Origin: an uncultured Verrucomicrobiae bacterium
GTDB taxonomy: Bacteria; Verrucomicrobiota; Verrucomicrobiia; Chthoniobacterales; UBA10450
Direction: 5' to 3'
Assembly: GCA_963738045.1 (NCBI GenBank)
Contig: CAVTUX010000005.1
Coordinates: forward strand, 548,715-612,714
DNA length: 64,000 nt
Both the position numbers and the translations under genes were made by a program. The notes under the pieces are model-generated. The model was given only the letters and a program-made list of their open reading frames with translations. It was not told where the DNA came from and made no database searches. This document shows, piece by piece, positions 37,944 to 51,171 of the stretch; position 1 is the stretch's first letter; each line of letters starts with the position of its first letter.

Positions 37944-40562
37944 ATGGCGGACACGCCGACAGCCAGCCCGGACGAAATTCTGGCCCGCATCAAACGCGAG
38001 GACGAGAAGGCGGTACGCGGACGACTGAAGATCTTCTTCGGAATGTGTCCCGGGCGTGGGCAAAACCTTCGCCATGTTGCAGGCGGCGCGGGAAGCGCAA
38101 AAAGCCGGCCGTGAAGTCGTGCTCGGCGTAGTCGAGACGCACGGGCGCGCGGAGACCGAGGCTTTGCTCGATGGACTGCCGATCGTGCCGCGCGCGCAAC
38201 TCGAACACCGCGGCGCGCACTTTGGCGAAATGGATCTCGACGCGATTCTGCTTTGGCATCCGCAGATCGCCGTCGTTGACGAGCTGGCGCACAGCAACGC
38301 GCCCGGCTCGCGTCATCCCAAGCGCTACCAGGACGTGCTCGAGCTGCTCGCCGCCGGGATCGACGTTTTCACGACCGTCAACGTCCAGCACATCGAAAGC
38401 CGGCGCGATCCCGTGCAGCAAATTACCGGCGTGCTCGTCAGGGAAACCGTTCCCGATTCGGTTCTCGATCGCGGCGGACGAAATCGTCCTGATCGATCTC
38501 ACGCCAGAACAACTGCGCGCCCGACTGGCGGAAGGAAAAGTCTATCTCGGCGATACCGCGGCGAGAGCGTCGGCAAAATTTTTTTCGCGAGAGCAATCTC
38601 ACCGCCCTGCGCGAAATGGCTCTGCGCATCGTGGCCGAGCATGTCGATCGCGATCTGCGCGAGATCATGCAGGAAGAGCGGATCGCCGGTCCCTGGAAAA
38701 GCGGTCATCGTCTGCTCGTGGCGGTGCGCGGCGGTCCGACCTCGGAGAAACTGATTCGTTATGCCCGGCGACTGGCGGCCTCGATGGAGGCCTCGTGGAT
38801 CGTCGCCAATGTCGATACCGGGCGCGCTCTTGGCGAAAAGCACCAGGCGCAGCTCAATCGCGATCTTGCGCTCGCGCGCCAGCTCGGCGCCGAAGTCATT
38901 TCAACGCCCGGCACGCATGTCGGTGAAGCGCTTCTCCGCATCGCGCGTCAGCATAACGTGACCCAGTTCGTCCTCGGCAAACCGGTCAAGACGCGCTGGC
39001 CCTGGCAGCGCTCGTCGCCGATCGATTGGCTCGTGCGGCACAGCGGCGAGATCGACATCCAGATGATTCGCTCGGACGACCGTCCGATTGCGCGCCCGCG
39101 GATCGATTTGGCGGAGCTGCGCTGGCGCGAGTATGGCGTCGCACTCGCGATCGTCGCGGTCATGACTGGAATTTGCCTGACGATCTTTCCGTACATCGGC
39201 TACTGGGCGGTGGCCCTTCTTTATCTGCTCACGGTAACGGTGAGTGCCTTGCGTCTGCACCGCGGCCCGACTTTGCTCCTGACCGCGTTGAGCGCGGCGC
39301 TTTGGGACTTTCTCTTCATCCCGCCCCGCTTCACTTTTTACATTGGTCAGTTGCCGGACTTCATGATGTTTGGAGTCTATTTTGTCGTCGCGCTTGTCAT
39401 CGGGCATCTGGCGACGCAATTGCGCGAGCGCGAAGAAGTCGAGCGCCGCCGCGAAGCAAGAGCGACCGCGCTTTACCGGCTGACGCGTGCGCTGGCCACG
39501 AGCCGCGACCTGGCAGAGGCGCTGGGGGCGGTCGTTCTCTTAATCCGGGATACTTTCCATGCCGAGAGCGCGATTTATCTGCGCGGAGCAAACGGATTGA
39601 TTCCCCACGCGGCCGGTTCTCTGGCGACGACGGAGAAGGATGAGAGCGTGGCCGCCTGGGCCTTTCAAAAAAAAGAACCCGCCGGAATGGGGACCGACAC
39701 GCTGCCCGAATCTCGTGCACTGCATTTGCCATTGCTGGCAGGCGATCGGGCCGAGGGCGTCCTCGCGATCAAGTTGCCGTCGCTCCCTTCCCTCCAGCAA
39801 CGCGAGTTACTCGACGGCTTCGCGGCGCAACTCGCGCTTTATTTGTACAAAGAGCGCGCGCTCCAGGAAAGCCGCGAGGCACAGATGAACGCGCAATCAC
39901 AAAAATTGCAAAAAACGCTTTTTGATTCCGTTTCGCATGAGCTCAAGACGCCGCTCGCGGCGATGTCCGCGACACTGCAACAAGCCAATCCCGATTGCGC
40001 CGAATTGCGGCAGGCGGCAAGGCGCCTAACAAATACGGTGGACAACCTGTTGGACGCAACGCGACTCGAATCCGGGCTTCTCCAGCCAGTGCGGGAATGG
40101 TGCGAGCCGGGCGAGCTGTTGCGCGAGGCGGTCGAACAGGCCGGCCTCGAAGAGCGGGTCGTGGAGGTCGCGGCCAACGGCGATTTGCCGGAGATTTCAG
40201 TCGACGCAGGGCTGATCGAGCAGGCTTTGGTCGCCCTGCTCTCCAACTCTGCCAGCTACAGCCCTCCGCAAACGCCGATCGAGGCCGGCGTGAGCAGGGA
40301 GGACGAGGCGGTCGTCTTCCGTGTCGCGGATCACGGGCCAGGACTTGCCCCAGGGGAAGAAGAAAGGGTTTTCGAAAAATTTTATCGCGGCGCGGGAAAA
40401 CCGGCCGGTGGGCTCGGGCTTGGGCTGTCTATCGCGCGCCAGCTGGTCCAGGCCCACGGCGGTATTGTTATCGGCGAGAATCGCCCCGAGGGCGGAGCAC
40501 GATTTTCCATTCGCCTTCCGTTGGGCGAACCGATGAAGTTGCCGCCGGAAGCTGCCTCGTGA
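37944..40562 (+). pseudogene. kdpD: sensor kinase KdpD with three +1 frameshifts in the N-terminal KdpD domain (near 38055, 38473, 38573)
   Basis: Frame 0 from ATG 37944: MADTPTASPDEILARIKREDEKAVRGRLKIFFGMCPG. Next frame (ORF 38056..): VGKTFAMLQAAREAQ...VRETVPDSVLDR. Next frame (ORF 38171..): ADEIVLIDLTPEQLRARLAEGKVYLGDTAARAS. Back in frame 0 (ORF 38616..40562, open from about 38574): QNFFRESNLTALREMALRIVAEH... This order matches E. coli KdpD as I recall it. Confidence 0.85.
38616..40562 (+). CDS. kdpD: intact distal KdpD reading frame (USP-like, 4 TM, GAF, histidine kinase)
   Basis: 648-aa uninterrupted ORF. H-box SHELKTPLAAM, N/G boxes LLSNSASYSP and DHGPGL..GLGLGLSIA. It could be expressed from an internal start if the frameshifts are real. 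Confidence 0.8.
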   Translation: MALRIVAEHVDRDLREIMQEERIAGPWKSGHRLLVAVRGGPTSEKLIRYARRLAASMEASWIVANVDTGRALGEKHQAQLNRDLALARQLGAEVISTPGTHVGEALLRIARQHNVTQFVLGKPVKTRWPWQRSSPIDWLVRHSGEIDIQMIRSDDRPIARPRIDLAELRWREYGVALAIVAVMTGICLTIFPYIGYWAVALLYLLTVTVSALRLHRGPTLLLTALSAALWDFLFIPPRFTFYIGQLPDFMMFGVYFVVALVIGHLATQLREREEVERRREARATALYRLTRALATSRDLAEALGAVVLLIRDTFHAESAIYLRGANGLIPHAAGSLATTEKDESVAAWAFQKKEPAGMGTDTLPESRALHLPLLAGDRAEGVLAIKLPSLPSLQQRELLDGFAAQLALYLYKERALQESREAQMNAQSQKLQKTLFDSVSHELKTPLAAMSATLQQANPDCAELRQAARRLTNTVDNLLDATRLESGLLQPVREWCEPGELLREAVEQAGLEERVVEVAANGDLPEISVDAGLIEQALVALLSNSASYSPPQTPIEAGVSREDEAVVFRVADHGPGLAPGEEERVFEKFYRGAGKPAGGLGLGLSIARQLVQAHGGIVIGENRPEGGARFSIRLPLGEPMKLPPEAAS

Positions 40563-41245
40563 AACCGGTCGCATTGATCATCGATGACGAGTTGCAGATT
40601 CGCCGCCTGCTCCGCGTCGTGCTGGAGGGCGATGGCTACGACGTGCGCGAGGCCGAGACGGGAGAATCCGGTCTGGTCGAAGCGGCCACGCGACGGCCGG
40701 AGGTGATTCTGCTCGATCTCGGTTTGCCGGATCGGGACGGACTCGAAGTGCTGAAACAGCTGCGCGAATGGAGTGAGACGCCGGTCCTCATCCTTTCGGT
40801 CCGCGACGACGAAGCGCGCAAGGTCGCGGCGCTGGACGCCGGCGCAGAGGATTACGTCACAAAGCCATTCAGCACGCCGGAATTGTTGGCACGGCTCCGG
40901 GCGGCTCAACGCAAGATGCGGCCAGCCGATGAAGTCTCGGTTTTTCACCATGGCGATCTGACCGTCGACCTCACGGCCCGGTTAGTGTCGCGTGGCGGGC
41001 GCGAAATCAAGCTGACCGCGACGGAGTATGCGCTCCTTCGATTGCTCGTGAAACACGGCGGGCGAGTCCTGACCCATCGCCACATCCTGCGCGAAATCTG
41101 GGGGCCGAAATCTGAGGAGCATCGCGAGTATTTGCGGGTCTACCTCACACATCTCCGACAGAAGATCGAGCCCGACCCAACGAGGCCGACAATTATCAAA
41201 ACGGAACCGGGCATCGGCTATCGTCTCACGCTTCCCGCAGCATAA
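40559..41245 (+). CDS. kdpE: response regulator KdpE (OmpR family)
   Basis: GTG 40559 overlaps the kdpD stop (GTGA). Receiver domain (ALIIDDE...ILLDLGLPD...KPF) plus a winged-helix domain (LTATEYALLRLL...GYRL). Confidence 0.92.
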   Translation: MKPVALIIDDELQIRRLLRVVLEGDGYDVREAETGESGLVEAATRRPEVILLDLGLPDRDGLEVLKQLREWSETPVLILSVRDDEARKVAALDAGAEDYVTKPFSTPELLARLRAAQRKMRPADEVSVFHHGDLTVDLTARLVSRGGREIKLTATEYALLRLLVKHGGRVLTHRHILREIWGPKSEEHREYLRVYLTHLRQKIEPDPTRPTIIKTEPGIGYRLTLPAA

Positions 41246-41311
41246 GTCCGGCTTCCGGAAACGCCGCGCCTGTCCGCCCCGTCTTCTTGACTTCCCGCCC
41301 CCGCCATCTGA

Positions 41312-41472
41312 CGATGCGCTCAGTTCTTTGTTCCGCTAAATGGTTCCGCAAGTGCAGGATCAACGGGGGACCCAACTGCCATCTGTGAACTGGGATGGAT
41401 CGGGGCGAACGATGCGCGACATCGAGAGCATTTAATGGCTCCAGCCCGACAGCTAACCTCGTCAGCGTCATT
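41312..41472 (+). promoter_or_regulatory. candidate c-di-AMP riboswitch (ydaO/kimA class)
   Basis: CGCUAAAU...ACGGGGGACCCAAC-hairpin(CCAUC/GAUGG)-GGGGCGAACG-hairpin-...AGCCCGACAGCUAACCUCGUCAGCG follows the order of ydaO-motif blocks as I remember them from B. subtilis (CGCUUAAUC..GCGGGGGACCCA..GGGGUGAAUCC..CCGUCAGCUAACCUCGUAAGCG). It lies 55 nt upstream of a KimA-like permease. The second half-site (UAAUGGCUCC versus UAGGGnnACC) is poorly conserved. Confidence 0.55.
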
Positions 41473-41526
41473 AAAGTCCAGCAAGGGTTTCGTCGCGCGG
41501 GACCGCTTTAGTTTCTTTCGAAGTTT

Positions 41527-43338
41527 TTGATACCGACTAACGTTAGGCGACCGCGCAACGTGGATGTGCCACGCGCAGCCGCGATCCTTTACGGCGACTG
41601 GGGCACGAGCAAAGCCTATGTCATCGGCCTCGCCTTTGCCGTTGGCGGTTATGCCTCGTTCTGGCTCATCGTCGCGATGTGCGTCCTCACCATGCTGGTG
41701 GGAATCAATTACATCATCGTTTGCCGGCTCTATCCGGAAGGCGGCGGGGTTTACGCCAGCGTTCGCCATCGCTCGCGAGGTCATCTCGATCGTCGGCGCA
41801 TTTTTGCTCATCGCGGATTACCTGGTGACGGCGGCGATCAGCTCGCTTTCGGCTTTCCAATACCTCGGCGTTCCGCATCCGGAGAAGTTTGCTGCTTTGG
41901 CGATCCTCGTCATCGGGTTGCTCAACTTGCTCGGTCCCAAACACACCGGCGGTCTTGCTTTTCTCATCTCGGTGCCGACTGCCCTTGTCGTCATCACGCT
42001 CGCTGCCTTCAGCGTCCCACACCTCGGCACGGCGATTGGAAATGTTCGGCCGCTGGTCGGCGGTTTCTGGAACGATTGGAGCGGTTTCGTAGCGATCGTG
42101 CTCGCGCTTTCGGGTGTGGAAGCGATTGCGAACGCGACCGGCGTCATGCGGCTCGATCCGGGCAGCACCGAGGAGCACCCTTCCGTCACCAAGACTTCCA
42201 CGCCCGGCGCTGCTCTGGGTGATGGTCGAAGTTTGCTTTTTCACCGCGCTCCTCGGTTTGGCGATGCATGCTTTGCCCGGTCTGCAGGTGGTAAACGGCG
42301 AGGTCAATGCTCCGGGCGCCCACGGCGTACGCGATTACATGCTCCGCTACATGGGACAGACTTTTGTCGGTGGCGCGCTTGGCCCGGCTTTGGGTAACGC
42401 CTTTGCGCTCATCGTGAGCGTCGTCTTCGGTTGTCTTCTGCTTTCGGCCGTCAACACCTCCATCGTGGCCCTGATCACGATTCAGTTCCTCATGGCGCGC
42501 GATCGCGAGATGCCGAGGATTTTCCAGCATCTCAACAAATGGGGCGTTCCGAATTTCGGCATGTTGCTCGCCACCCTCGTGCCGATCGCACTTGTCCTCG
42601 TGGTCCGCGACATCGCCGGGCTGGCCGAGTTGTATGCGGTCGGCGTCGTAGGCGCGATCGCGACCAATCTCGGCGCGACGGCGACCGACCGGACGAAGGA
42701 GATGAAGACCTGGGAACGTACCCTCATGTTCGGTACCTTCATCGTCATGGCGGCGATCGAGATCTCGCTCTTCATCGACAAACCGAATGCGCGCTACTTC
42801 GTCGTTACCATCCTCGCCGTCGGACTGATCCTGCGAGGACTGGTGCAGGAAAGCCGGCTGAAAAAAGAAGCTACGCTCGAGCCCGAGACTTTGCCCGTGC
42901 AAGTCGCTAAGGGCGAGTACGGCGGCGCCGGGCGACGGCGAGGTCATGCTCTGCGCCATTCGCGGCCCCGGGCGTACACTCGACTTCGCCTTGCGCGAAG
43001 CGTGCGAAACCGGTCGCCGGCTTTATCTTCTTTTCGTGCGTGAGCAGCGCTTCATGACGGAGCAGGACGCGAAACGTAAATGGCAGGAAGACCCGGAAGC
43101 ACGCGTAATTTTCGAAGACGCCAGAGCCCGTTCGCCGGATTGTCCGCCGCTCTTCTGCTACGCGGTGAGCGACTCCGCCTCGCAGACCATCGTCGATATC
43201 GCGGCGACGTTAGGCGCGTCCCGTCTCATCCTTGGCGCGCCCGGTCGCCACGCCATGGTAAACCTTCTGCGTGGCAATCTGGTCCGCGAGGTCTCCGCCA
43301 TGCTGCCCGAAGAGATCGACCTGCTGGTCTACGCCTGA
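41527..43338 (+). pseudogene. APC-superfamily KimA-like (putative K+) permease with C-terminal USP domain, paralog 1, three +1 frameshifts (near 41779, 42206, 42930)
   Basis: ORFs 41527.., 41564.., 42114.. and 42946..43338 in successive frames together align end to end with the intact paralog at 49342-51171 (LYGDWGTSKAYVIG, YPEGGGVYAS, LSGVEAIANATGVM, SAVNTSIVAL, USP tail ILGAPGRHAMVNLLRGN). Confidence 0.8.
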
Positions 43339-49341: not shown

Positions 49342-51171
49342 ATGGCTGAACCTCTTATCGAAGCGCCGGGTGTGCATCGGCCCCGCAACGTCGACTGGAA
49401 GCGCGCCGCCGCGTTGCTCTACGGCGACTGGGGCACGAGCAAAGCCTATGTCATCGGGCTCGCTTTCGTCGCCGCCGGGTTCGCGTCATTTCCCCTTATC
49501 CTCGCGGTTTGCGCGCTGACCGCGGTCGTCGGTTTCAACTACATCATTGTTTGCGCGCACTTTCCCGATGGCGGTGGCGTTTATTCCGCGGCGCGAGAAC
49601 AAAGCCGGTTCCTCGCCTCGGCCGGAGCACTGCTCCTGGTAGCGAATTTTATCGTCACCGCCGCGCTCAGCGGTTGGGCCGCAGTGAGCTACTTCGGTGT
49701 GCCGCCGGAATACGCGCGGGTCGCAACGATGGGGCTCGTGGTCGTAGTCGGGGCGATCAACTTCTTCGGGCCGAAACACAGCGGCAGCGTCTCAATTTAT
49801 CTGGCGGTTCCGGCCGTCCTGACCGTCATCATGATCATCGGCTTGAGCAGCGGTCATCTGAAGACCGATCATCTTGAGCCGGCGCATGAGGACTATGCGG
49901 TCGCCTGGACGCAATTCGTCGGCGTCATTCTCGCGCTGAGCGGCGTGGAAGCGGTGGCCAACATCACGGGCGTGATGAAACTCGATCCCGACTCAACGCC
50001 CGAGCATCCGAAAGTCACGCGCACAGCGGCGAAGGCAATCATCCCGGTGGCGATCGAGGTGGTCGGCGGGACGGCGCTCCTCGGGTGGGCGATGCTCTCG
50101 ATGTCCAAAACCTTTACTCCGCAATTGACCAATCATGCGGAGGACATGCTCCGCTTTCTCGGCGAACACTATGGCTCGCTGACGGTTGCTCCTTGGTTTG
50201 GAAGCGCATTCGGTCTCTTCGTCGGCGTGGTCTTCGGGCTGCTGCTTTTCAGCGCGGTCAATACCGCGGTCGTCGCCCTCATTGGAGTCATCTACATGAT
50301 GGCGCAGGACGGCGAGATGCCGAAGCAACTGGCTCGCCTCAATCGCTACGGCGTTCCGCGCGTTCCACTCTTTGTTGCGGTTGCCATCCCAATCCTTGTT
50401 CTTGCTGTGACGCGAAAATTTGAGGCGCTTGCCGGCCTCTACGCGATCGGCGTGGTGGGCGCGATCGCAGTCAATCTCGGCTCCTGCACCTTCAACAAAA
50501 AGCTCGGGCTCGCCTGGTACGTCCGACTTCTGATGGGCGCGACCTTTCTGGTTTTGGCCGCGGTGGAAGTGACGATCGCGAAGACCAAACCCGACGCGCT
50601 CTTTTTCGCGATCTGCGTGCTCGGGATCGGCCTTTCCCTGCGCGCCTATTCTCACAAGCTCTCGGGATTGAAAACCCTTACGATGACAAAGGAAGTGGCG
50701 GAGATGGTCGCGCCCGATCTCCCGGCAACGCTCAGGCCGCGGCTCGAGGAAGGGCAGAAGATCATGGTCGCGGCGCGCGGAATCAATCCCGTCCTGAACT
50801 TCGCGCTGGAGGAGGCCCAGCTGCGCAAGGCAGTACTCTGCGTCGTTTATATCAAGGAGATCGCGGTCTATTTCGCCGATGTGCCGCGGGTGCTCGGGCG
50901 CGCAAAATGGGAGGACGATGCGCAAGCACGAGCGATCATGTCCCTCATGCTGAAGGAAGGCGAAACGCGCGGGATTTGCGTGCAGCCGGTTTACGCGGTG
51001 AGCGAAGACCCTTCGGCCACCATCCTCGATCTGGCGGCGACGTTGGGTGTCGATTACATCATCCTCGGCGCATCCCAGCGCCATACCCTGGCGGATTTGC
51101 TCAAAGGCAGTGTCGCGACCCAGATCGCGCAGCACCTTCCCGATTCGATCCGGCTGGTAATCTTCGGGTAA
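49342..51171 (+). CDS. APC-superfamily KimA-like (putative K+) permease with C-terminal USP domain, paralog 2 (intact)
   Basis: ORF 49297..51171, with likely ATG at 49342. LLYGDWGTSKAYVIG and HFPDGGGVYSAAREQSRFLASAGALLLVANFIVTAALS resemble B. subtilis KimA (YPQGGGAYIVSKENLG...LLVDYILTVAVS, from memory). About 12 TM helices. USP-like tail VDYIILGASQRHTLADLLKGS. Confidence 0.8.
   Translation: MAEPLIEAPGVHRPRNVDWKRAAALLYGDWGTSKAYVIGLAFVAAGFASFPLILAVCALTAVVGFNYIIVCAHFPDGGGVYSAAREQSRFLASAGALLLVANFIVTAALSGWAAVSYFGVPPEYARVATMGLVVVVGAINFFGPKHSGSVSIYLAVPAVLTVIMIIGLSSGHLKTDHLEPAHEDYAVAWTQFVGVILALSGVEAVANITGVMKLDPDSTPEHPKVTRTAAKAIIPVAIEVVGGTALLGWAMLSMSKTFTPQLTNHAEDMLRFLGEHYGSLTVAPWFGSAFGLFVGVVFGLLLFSAVNTAVVALIGVIYMMAQDGEMPKQLARLNRYGVPRVPLFVAVAIPILVLAVTRKFEALAGLYAIGVVGAIAVNLGSCTFNKKLGLAWYVRLLMGATFLVLAAVEVTIAKTKPDALFFAICVLGIGLSLRAYSHKLSGLKTLTMTKEVAEMVAPDLPATLRPRLEEGQKIMVAARGINPVLNFALEEAQLRKAVLCVVYIKEIAVYFADVPRVLGRAKWEDDAQARAIMSLMLKEGETRGICVQPVYAVSEDPSATILDLAATLGVDYIILGASQRHTLADLLKGSVATQIAQHLPDSIRLVIFG

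Follow-up and report, generated by a model that had tools for sequence, protein, structure and literature searches.

A c-di-AMP riboswitch ahead of a KimA-like transporter gene in an uncultured lineage of the Chthoniobacterales

Does the spacer between kdpE and a frameshifted transporter gene in an uncultured verrucomicrobial genome hold a working cyclic di-AMP (c-di-AMP) riboswitch, or a relic that is disappearing along with the gene it once controlled? The question arises from a stretch of 64,000 nucleotides of contig CAVTUX010000005.1 (GenBank assembly GCA_963738045.1, positions 548,715 to 612,714), which we refer to as the window and to which all coordinates apply. A preliminary description of this DNA had proposed a ydaO/kimA-class riboswitch upstream of a KimA-like permease gene. 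Our overall reading, which we hold with considerable confidence, is that of a functional OFF-type c-di-AMP riboswitch before a K+ importer of the KimA/KUP type, with the frameshifts arising as assembly errors. Throughout, the binding of c-di-AMP, how strongly and in which direction expression is controlled, and the transport of K+ are predictions from sequence.

Identity and fold of the aptamer

The riboswitch lies in a 281-nt spacer that runs from the kdpE stop codon (41243-41245) to a TTG start codon at 41527, and the sequence blocks listed in the preliminary description are all present there, in the order stated. A cmscan search of the whole window against Rfam 15 yielded a single match above gathering score, to the c-di-AMP riboswitch family RF00379 at 41324-41483 on the forward strand (55.1 bits compared with a gathering score of 38, E 5e-10). 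The match spans the full model (positions 1-134 of 134), in line with the ydaO/kimA class suggested earlier. The Rfam model, joined for the window by a model built from copies of the same genus, detected no second copy in the window or elsewhere in the 4.1-Mb, 10-contig genome; the search for other ydaO-motif copies thus leaves the riboswitch as a single-copy element.

41334-41475, forward strand: c-di-AMP riboswitch aptamer (RF00379 match, covariation in 57 copies)

In the RF00379 alignment, P1 is formed by CGCU (41334-41337) paired with AGCG (41464-41467), a long-range helix joins ACGGGG (41363-41368) to CCUCGU (41457-41462), and a pseudoknot connects the P6 loop to the 3' tail (UUUAAUG, 41431-41437, with CAUUAAA, 41469-41475). 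Folding of the aptamer alone recovered P1, P2, the long-range helix, the P3 insert hairpin, P5 and P6, while a minimum free energy (MFE) fold of the entire leader was uninformative (z = +0.9 versus shuffles). A different closing helix, between AUGCGCU (41313-41319) and AGCGUCAU (41464-41471), had been put forward previously. This is not the P1 of the family, whose 5' strand is at 41334-41337: the 5' arm of the proposed outer helix lies between a promoter-like -10 element and the conserved leader and is freely variable among relatives, and the 3' UCAU of AGCGUCAU belongs to the pseudoknot.

We built a covariance model from ten copies of the genus and used it to search loci carrying an orthologue of the downstream gene (n = 80). 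The riboswitch was found before the orthologous gene in 51 of these 80 Chthoniobacterales loci, directly before it in 41. One locus (L096) retains a degenerate remnant, scoring 36 bits against 118-174 bits in other relatives. An alignment of 57 sequences, comprising the window copy and 56 related Chthoniobacterales copies, had standard pairs in 91.7% of cells, compared with 29-46% when partners were slid by 1-3 columns; as the alignment was fitted to the model these figures lean towards structure, although the slid controls are still far lower. Both-sided changes were observed at 22 of the 37 base pairs, and none of 500 shuffles reached the observed values. The pseudoknot is paired in 96% across copies, and in a second riboswitch class from the same genus it is formed by CUUGGUG with CACCGAG, a full compensatory swap. 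The fold is thus supported by covariation across the 57 related copies. On these grounds 41334-41475 is a genuine c-di-AMP riboswitch aptamer of the ydaO/kimA class, predicted to bind its ligand.

Expression platform and probable direction of control

Downstream of the aptamer, a terminator scan identified a hairpin close to the start of the transporter gene.

41486-41504, forward strand: terminator-like hairpin GGUUUCG-UCGCG-CGGGACC, then a U-rich tract at 41506-41519

The hairpin (-9.4 kcal/mol) is followed by the sequence GCUUUAGUUUCUUUC. It is conserved, with its UCGCG loop and covarying stems, in 23 of 23 aligned leaders, and beyond the pseudoknot tail no other structure is shared by short and long leaders. 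Both hairpin strands lie 3' of the aptamer, beyond the end of the pseudoknot tail at 41475, so that a ligand-locked aptamer would leave the hairpin free to form, which points to an OFF switch. For about 25 leaders the hairpin 5' strand GCGCCUCG reaches its best computed duplex, of -12.4 kcal/mol, with UCGGGGCGA of the aptamer core; the window has a variant 5' strand that pairs best with GGGGACCC (-11.3 kcal/mol). It is plausible that GCGCCUCG-type pairing with the aptamer core represents an antiterminator that would be sequestered by the bound fold. Another candidate antiterminator, the P2 5' strand UGGUUCCGC with the terminator 3' strand CGGGACCG, forms a strong duplex (-11.8 to -14.7 kcal/mol) in the window and in L023 and L024 but is absent in L020, L021 and L025, and was rejected as not conserved.

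We propose that the riboswitch would be transcribed from its own promoter just 3' of kdpE. At high c-di-AMP, the aptamer, including its pseudoknot, would fold and the hairpin at 41486-41504 would form before the U-rich tract. Expression of the gene with the weak TTG start at 41527 would then fall, most likely because transcription ends prematurely. At low c-di-AMP, the hairpin 5' strand would pair with the G-tract in the aptamer core and the gene would be expressed. The outcome would be repression by c-di-AMP of potassium uptake via a KimA/KUP-type K+/H+ symporter with a C-terminal domain of universal stress protein (USP) type.

Several features sit less comfortably with intrinsic termination. 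The terminator is modest, with three G-U pairs in its stem and z = -1.2 versus shuffles; the U-tract begins two bases past the stem and is interrupted; and the antiterminator pairing, a computed best duplex only, differs among sub-clades. A genuine riboswitch could instead exert control via translation initiation or Rho, with the hairpin or a weaker helix around the UUG start limiting ribosome access. The weak TTG start of 33 riboswitch-preceded genes (CTG in the four closest relatives), the imperfect U-tract, an MFE fold of 41476-41545 that puts the start codon in a small helix, and the fact that no clear Shine-Dalgarno sequence is visible would all suit such a mechanism. Against this, conserved structure common to both leader types is confined to the hairpin with the UUUG/UUUC runs after it, no helix around the start codon is conserved in sequence or in register, and characterized members of the class, B. 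subtilis kimA and Dehalobacter among them, use terminators. We therefore regard translational or Rho-dependent control as unlikely, though it deserves to be taken seriously, and favour termination at the hairpin.

Two further elements were recognized upstream of the aptamer.

41287-41315, forward strand: promoter-like element, with TTGACT at 41287-41292, a 17-nt spacer and a -10-like GACGAT at 41310-41315 (from conservation)
41322-41332, forward strand: 11-mer AGTTCTTTGTT, nearly invariant, lying 3' of the -10-like element and 5' of P1 (from an anchored upstream comparison)

In most of the 57 riboswitch copies, CTTGAC is found at a fixed distance of approximately 37 nt 5' of AGTTCTTTGTT, accompanied by a weakly conserved -10-like hexamer; a consensus promoter scan made no call for the 41287-41315 element. 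The conservation of CTTGAC and the -10-like element upstream suggests that the riboswitch has its own promoter after kdpE, and we take 41287-41315 to be a putative promoter. The 11-mer is the best-conserved stretch in the anchored comparison of upstream regions, exceeding P1. It falls outside the Rfam consensus and is kept also in the second riboswitch class, which has a different downstream gene. The 11-mer probably forms the start of the transcript, and its role may lie in that position, in being the initially transcribed sequence or in providing a binding site.

A 9-mer that is hyper-abundant in the genome (GCCTAACGA / TCGTTAGGC, or its core GTTAGGC) was also observed in this region: inside the variable P3 loop of the L022 riboswitch, in the -35/-10 spacers of L014, L020, L021 and L022, and at window positions 41541-41549, which correspond to codons 5-8 of the KimA-like gene.

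The transporter gene and its frame breaks

The gene behind the riboswitch belongs to a family whose database name is "amino acid transporter / universal stress protein".

41527-43338, forward strand: KimA-like APC permease with a C-terminal USP-type domain (TTG start 41527, stop 43336-43338)
41775, forward strand: first frame break, a single extra G (placed by aligning with the intact orthologue L023)
42206, forward strand: second frame break, a single extra G (placed by aligning with the intact orthologue L023)
42907-42935, forward strand: third frame break, within the variable linker that joins the permease to the USP part (23-nt gap compared with L023)
49342-51171, forward strand: intact paralogue, approximately 43% identical, without a riboswitch in front (sequence search, no second RF00379 match)

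Intact orthologues are approximately 605 aa long. When one was examined, the Pfam families AA_permease and Usp both scored slightly below their cut-offs, NCBIfam gave only a meaningless 22-bit partial match, and the single sequence yielded no match against the PDB. A profile of 28 diverse family members, on the other hand, matched KimA (6S3K, 8B70 and 8B71; E 3e-21), followed by ApcT (1.9e-8), while USP structures matched the C-terminal 130 residues of the profile. An AlphaFold2 model compared with the PDB using Foldseek yielded the three KimA entries as top hits over the full length (E 1e-15 to 1e-13); the input alignment was shallow (26 sequences with 76% mean identity), so this ranking serves as corroboration only. 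KimA is thus the top match both by profile and by fold search, which agrees with the description of the downstream permease as KimA-like.

The resemblance extends to residues with assigned functions. In KimA, the K+ site, gate, proton-coupling and c-di-AMP-contact residues have been described (PMC6994465; bioRxiv 10.1101/2023.01.09.523207). In the profile search, KimA D117, Y118, T121, S125, T230, E233, R337 and Y377 align to D97, Y98, T101, S105, S195, E198, R330 and Y369, respectively. These KimA residues are the ones so described, and their counterparts in the family are invariant or nearly so, T101, E198 and Y369 among them. Like KimA of B. subtilis, its nearest solved structure, the transporter combines a 12-transmembrane (TM) APC/LeuT-type domain with a C-terminal alpha/beta cytosolic domain, and equivalents of D117, T121, S125, T230 (Ser here), E233, R337 and Y377 are conserved. 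However, identity to KimA is only approximately 17-18%, and the C-terminal domain scores as USP whereas that of KimA is described as PPAT-like. KimA itself belongs to the KUP family, works as a K+/H+ symporter and is inhibited by c-di-AMP.

TM1 of the transporter, ILYGDWGTSKAY, also differs from KimA in carrying the canonical KUP motif 'IYGD' ('YGD'). The KUP motif VFGD/IYGD is absent from KimA, in which D36 corresponds to Kup D23 within the motif (PMC6994465). Going by this motif rather than by a computed alignment, D24 and Y31 would be the equivalents of KimA D36 and Y43. The Pfam K_trans model (PF02705) found no match in the genome or in the Pfam scans, which speaks against a 'canonical Kup' and not against a KimA-like protein, as KimA itself falls outside the core of that model. 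Two observations weigh against the assignment: the HMMER local alignment sets W25, not Y31, opposite KimA Y43 and leaves D36 unaligned, and the AlphaFold model is weak, with a mean predicted local distance difference test score (pLDDT) of 61.5. Taken together, the downstream gene probably encodes a K+/H+ symporter of the KimA/KUP type, with K+ as its predicted substrate.

A bolder interpretation is that the family (approximately 1,300 representative clusters, below the Pfam cut-offs) constitutes a third KUP/KimA branch with the USP tail as a second nucleotide sensor. The canonical KUP TM1 'YGD' motif combined with the two-domain architecture of KimA may be the signature of such a branch, and the riboswitch or a direct placement behind kdpE may be its marker. 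Were this so, the USP tail would sense c-di-AMP or ATP, and uptake would be gated twice by the same signal. We offer this idea tentatively and consider it more doubtful than probable. The USP tail was also inspected for the c-di-AMP motif of S. aureus KdpD, which we take to be SxS-X20-FTAxY; SDS is followed 20 residues on by APGRH, so the motif is absent.

The TTG start at 41527 is fixed by an in-frame stop directly before the equivalent codon in many relatives. Orthologues start with TTG in 35 cases, with ATG in approximately 31, with GTG in four and, in the four nearest relatives, with CTG. TTG is the start codon in 33 orthologues with a riboswitch in front, and loci with an absent, distal or degenerate riboswitch have mostly ATG, a pattern across L020-L099 rather than a statistical test, the related genomes not being independent.

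The transporter family has exactly two members in the genome, both in the window. As noted in the preliminary description, the paralogue at 49342 has no riboswitch leader: neither RF00379 nor the genus model gave a second match in the window. The two genes are 6 kb apart here; some relatives have them in tandem, the riboswitch-controlled gene coming first (L020, and L021:2971-6704 with approximately 100 nt between them). Tandem paralogues in loci of the L020/L021 type may be co-transcribed.

All three frame breaks reported for the regulated gene are present in the assembly, in which it reads in four successive frames. The four pieces give collinear matches covering positions 4-599 of the 600 positions of the family profile, with no stop codons or deletions inside them. 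The nearest relative, L023, has an intact orthologue that is approximately 96% identical. Relative to it, the first two breaks are single extra bases, and we interpret the 23-nt gap at 42907 as the sum of an in-frame difference of 24 nt and one extra base, which the preliminary description had put near 42930. There are 70 substitutions with respect to L023. Read in the successive frames, 58 of them are third-position changes, and in the corrected frames 61 are synonymous and nine non-synonymous. This bias towards third positions and synonymous changes indicates that the gene evolved as an intact gene. Every complete orthologue (78 of 78) is intact, one further orthologue running off its contig.

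Frame breaks are also common elsewhere in this genome. When long open reading frames (ORFs) of a congener were compared with it, 27 of 85 matched in more than one frame, nearly all with +1 shifts; some of the 27 are antisense or repeat artefacts of a crude ORF set, and approximately 20 are clean collinear shifts. The split genes include secY, which occupies two frames (G000 C4:846584-847670), and SecY is indispensable to a free-living cell. Marker completeness is 76.8% despite an assembly of only 10 contigs, a pattern shared by other few-contig genomes of the genus. Given +1 shifts across the genome, secY included, together with intact orthologues and the synonymous bias, it is, on this indirect evidence, highly likely that the three frameshifts are systematic insertion errors of long-read assembly and not signs of decay. 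Within the window, kdpD, speA and a TonB receptor gene also carry frameshifts, which are nearly all +1 genome-wide.

The opposing view is that the frameshifts are real, the gene being a recent pseudogene whose role was taken over by the paralogue at 49342 and the leader a decaying relic. It draws on the four frames of the assembly, on the second, intact paralogue 6 kb away and on L096, which demonstrates with its 36 bits that riboswitch decay is possible. The aptamer in the window, however, scores on par with those of relatives; stops and deletions are lacking within the four pieces, synonymous changes outnumber non-synonymous ones 61 to 9, the +1 bias affects about a quarter of the long genes tested, including the essential secY, and all 78 complete orthologues are intact. 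A genuine pseudogene is thus improbable, and the earlier suspicion that the element is decaying together with its gene is not upheld. An apparent pseudogene in this assembly is best regarded as an assembly error, not as genome decay, unless reads show otherwise.

A variant half-site and the proposed c-di-AMP circuit

A second reason for suspecting decay was the apparently poor conservation of the second ligand half-site. This is correct in so far as the 5' half of the aptamer agrees with the Rfam consensus at all conserved positions, while six Rfam-conserved positions deviate, every one in the 3' half. Two of the six, the U in GGGGUGAAU and the last A in GAACCCG, flank P4 and have changed together from U-A to C-G; other verrucomicrobial copies have either U with A or C with G at this pair. 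As both bases change together, these deviations are read as a compensatory pair that lengthens P4. The remaining four are unpaired consensus positions, and are the points that count against an ordinary aptamer: C replaces the final U of UGAAU, the first G of GAA and the A in cAg, and GA stands in place of UA. Where inspected, these junction variants are retained in nearly all of the 57 copies, and the GGGGCG..AC / CAGCCCG variant was found also in another verrucomicrobial family. On this comparative evidence we read the second half-site as a selected variant, not the product of erosion.

It could be argued that these clade-specific changes alter the aptamer itself, which would then bind one ligand instead of two, or a related dinucleotide, as four unpaired positions confined to the 3' half, fixed across the clade where inspected and recurring in another verrucomicrobial family might imply. 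An RF00379 score far over the cut-off, a 5' half that matches the consensus at each conserved position, the merely compensatory nature of the two further deviations and the gene context of a classic c-di-AMP regulon make altered ligand recognition very improbable. Least credible of all is an ON-type switch, in which c-di-AMP binding would raise expression: both hairpin strands are 3' of the pseudoknot tail (41475) and free when the aptamer is locked, the segments computed to compete with the hairpin lie in the aptamer core and are sequestered in the bound fold, and repression by c-di-AMP is what is expected for a potassium importer.

Signalling enzymes for c-di-AMP are encoded in the genome. 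The diadenylate cyclase that was looked for is present as an intact CdaA-type gene (PF02457 DAC, 135 bits) with an open 290-codon frame and N-terminal membrane helices, adjoining folP, and a gene for a PgpH-like 7TM-HD phosphodiesterase was found as well. The immediate upstream neighbour of the riboswitch links it to kdp.

40559-41245, forward strand: kdpE response regulator, upstream neighbour (Pfam Response_reg and Trans_reg_C)

In 15 of the 80 loci the orthologue has a KdpE homologue immediately upstream; most of the 15 have no riboswitch, and there the gene has an ATG start. The transporter sits behind the riboswitch or behind kdpDE, which supports a role in potassium homeostasis. The coherent K+/c-di-AMP regulon envisaged in the preliminary description therefore holds for the cyclase, the KimA-like gene and the kdp link in 15 of 80 loci, while adjacency to kdp is not fixed. 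Such adjacency was also considered as a defining feature of the riboswitch and rejected, given the small number of loci that have it, most without the riboswitch. The KimA-like gene directly follows kdpE with no detectable riboswitch at L030, L031, L033, L036, L040, L063, L070, L077, L090, L094 and L099, and at L096 the degenerate remnant is kept between the two genes. In the kdpE loci that lack a riboswitch, it is as if the transporter had been recruited to the KdpDE regulon.

RF00379 is present in nine of 24 other genomes of the genus, in none of 16 genomes from other families of the order and in five of 150 other genomes sampled across the phylum. Downstream of the copies elsewhere in the phylum are TrkH/KtrB-like genes and genes for a KimA-type permease and a CPA2 antiporter, which is the usual ion-homeostasis regulon. 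The orthologous loci derive from soil and peat metagenome-assembled genomes, some of which are named Candidatus Udaeobacter. Predicted c-di-AMP riboswitches before K+ transporter genes of Verrucomicrobia have already been noted (PMC6488665); a literature search found no paper mentioning both Udaeobacter and riboswitches.

Two variations on this arrangement were observed among the related loci. The second RF00379 class, found in three congeners (L017:5571-7130, L018:5456-7010 and L019), has other P5, P6 and pseudoknot sequences and precedes not a transporter gene but one for a membrane protein of approximately 436 aa with a weak, sub-threshold match to SPFH/Band 7 (21 bits). At approximately nine loci a gene for a BBP2/OmpL-type outer-membrane porin (approximately 470 aa, Pfam 114 bits) lies between the riboswitch and the KimA-like gene (L048, L058, L059, L067, L071, L076 and L093, with variations at L056 and L066). 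This gene order suggests a two-membrane uptake operon under c-di-AMP control.

Comparison with the B. subtilis kimA (ydaO) leader reveals the same full RF00379 match, the same helices, a pseudoknot between the P6 loop and 3' tail and a platform of the terminator type; each leader precedes a gene of KimA type, here for a predicted K+ importer, in a host with a CdaA-type cyclase. The leader described here differs in its extended P2 and P3, in a P4 longer by a C-G pair, in the four 3'-half junction positions that are off consensus, in a clade-specific, nearly invariant 5' AGUUCUUUGUU and in controlling a gene that starts with UUG. Its host also differs, as a member of the Chthoniobacterales in the Verrucomicrobiota, where RF00379 is sparse. 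A c-di-AMP riboswitch is likewise tied to the Kdp/K+ regulon in B. thuringiensis, where it belongs to kdpFABC (PMC6488665), whereas here kdpFABC is under KdpDE two-component control and the riboswitch stands before the neighbouring KimA-like gene.

On our reading the circuit is the familiar one in which c-di-AMP represses potassium uptake, and the known picture of the riboswitch class is unchanged. Its points of interest are the re-annotation of the transporter, the half-site variant, the 5' 11-mer and a TTG start tied to direct riboswitch control. Genes of soil Verrucomicrobia that are widely annotated as "amino acid transporter / universal stress protein" can be given a new reading, that of probable potassium importers under c-di-AMP control. 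The alignment of 57 copies, with its P4 extension and clade-fixed junction variants, should be useful for gauging how far the second ligand half-site tolerates change. The c-di-AMP/K+ circuit has so far been studied mainly in Firmicutes and Actinobacteria; for the abundant, Udaeobacter-like soil Verrucomicrobia, our reading of the locus would extend it to a dominant, uncultured soil lineage.

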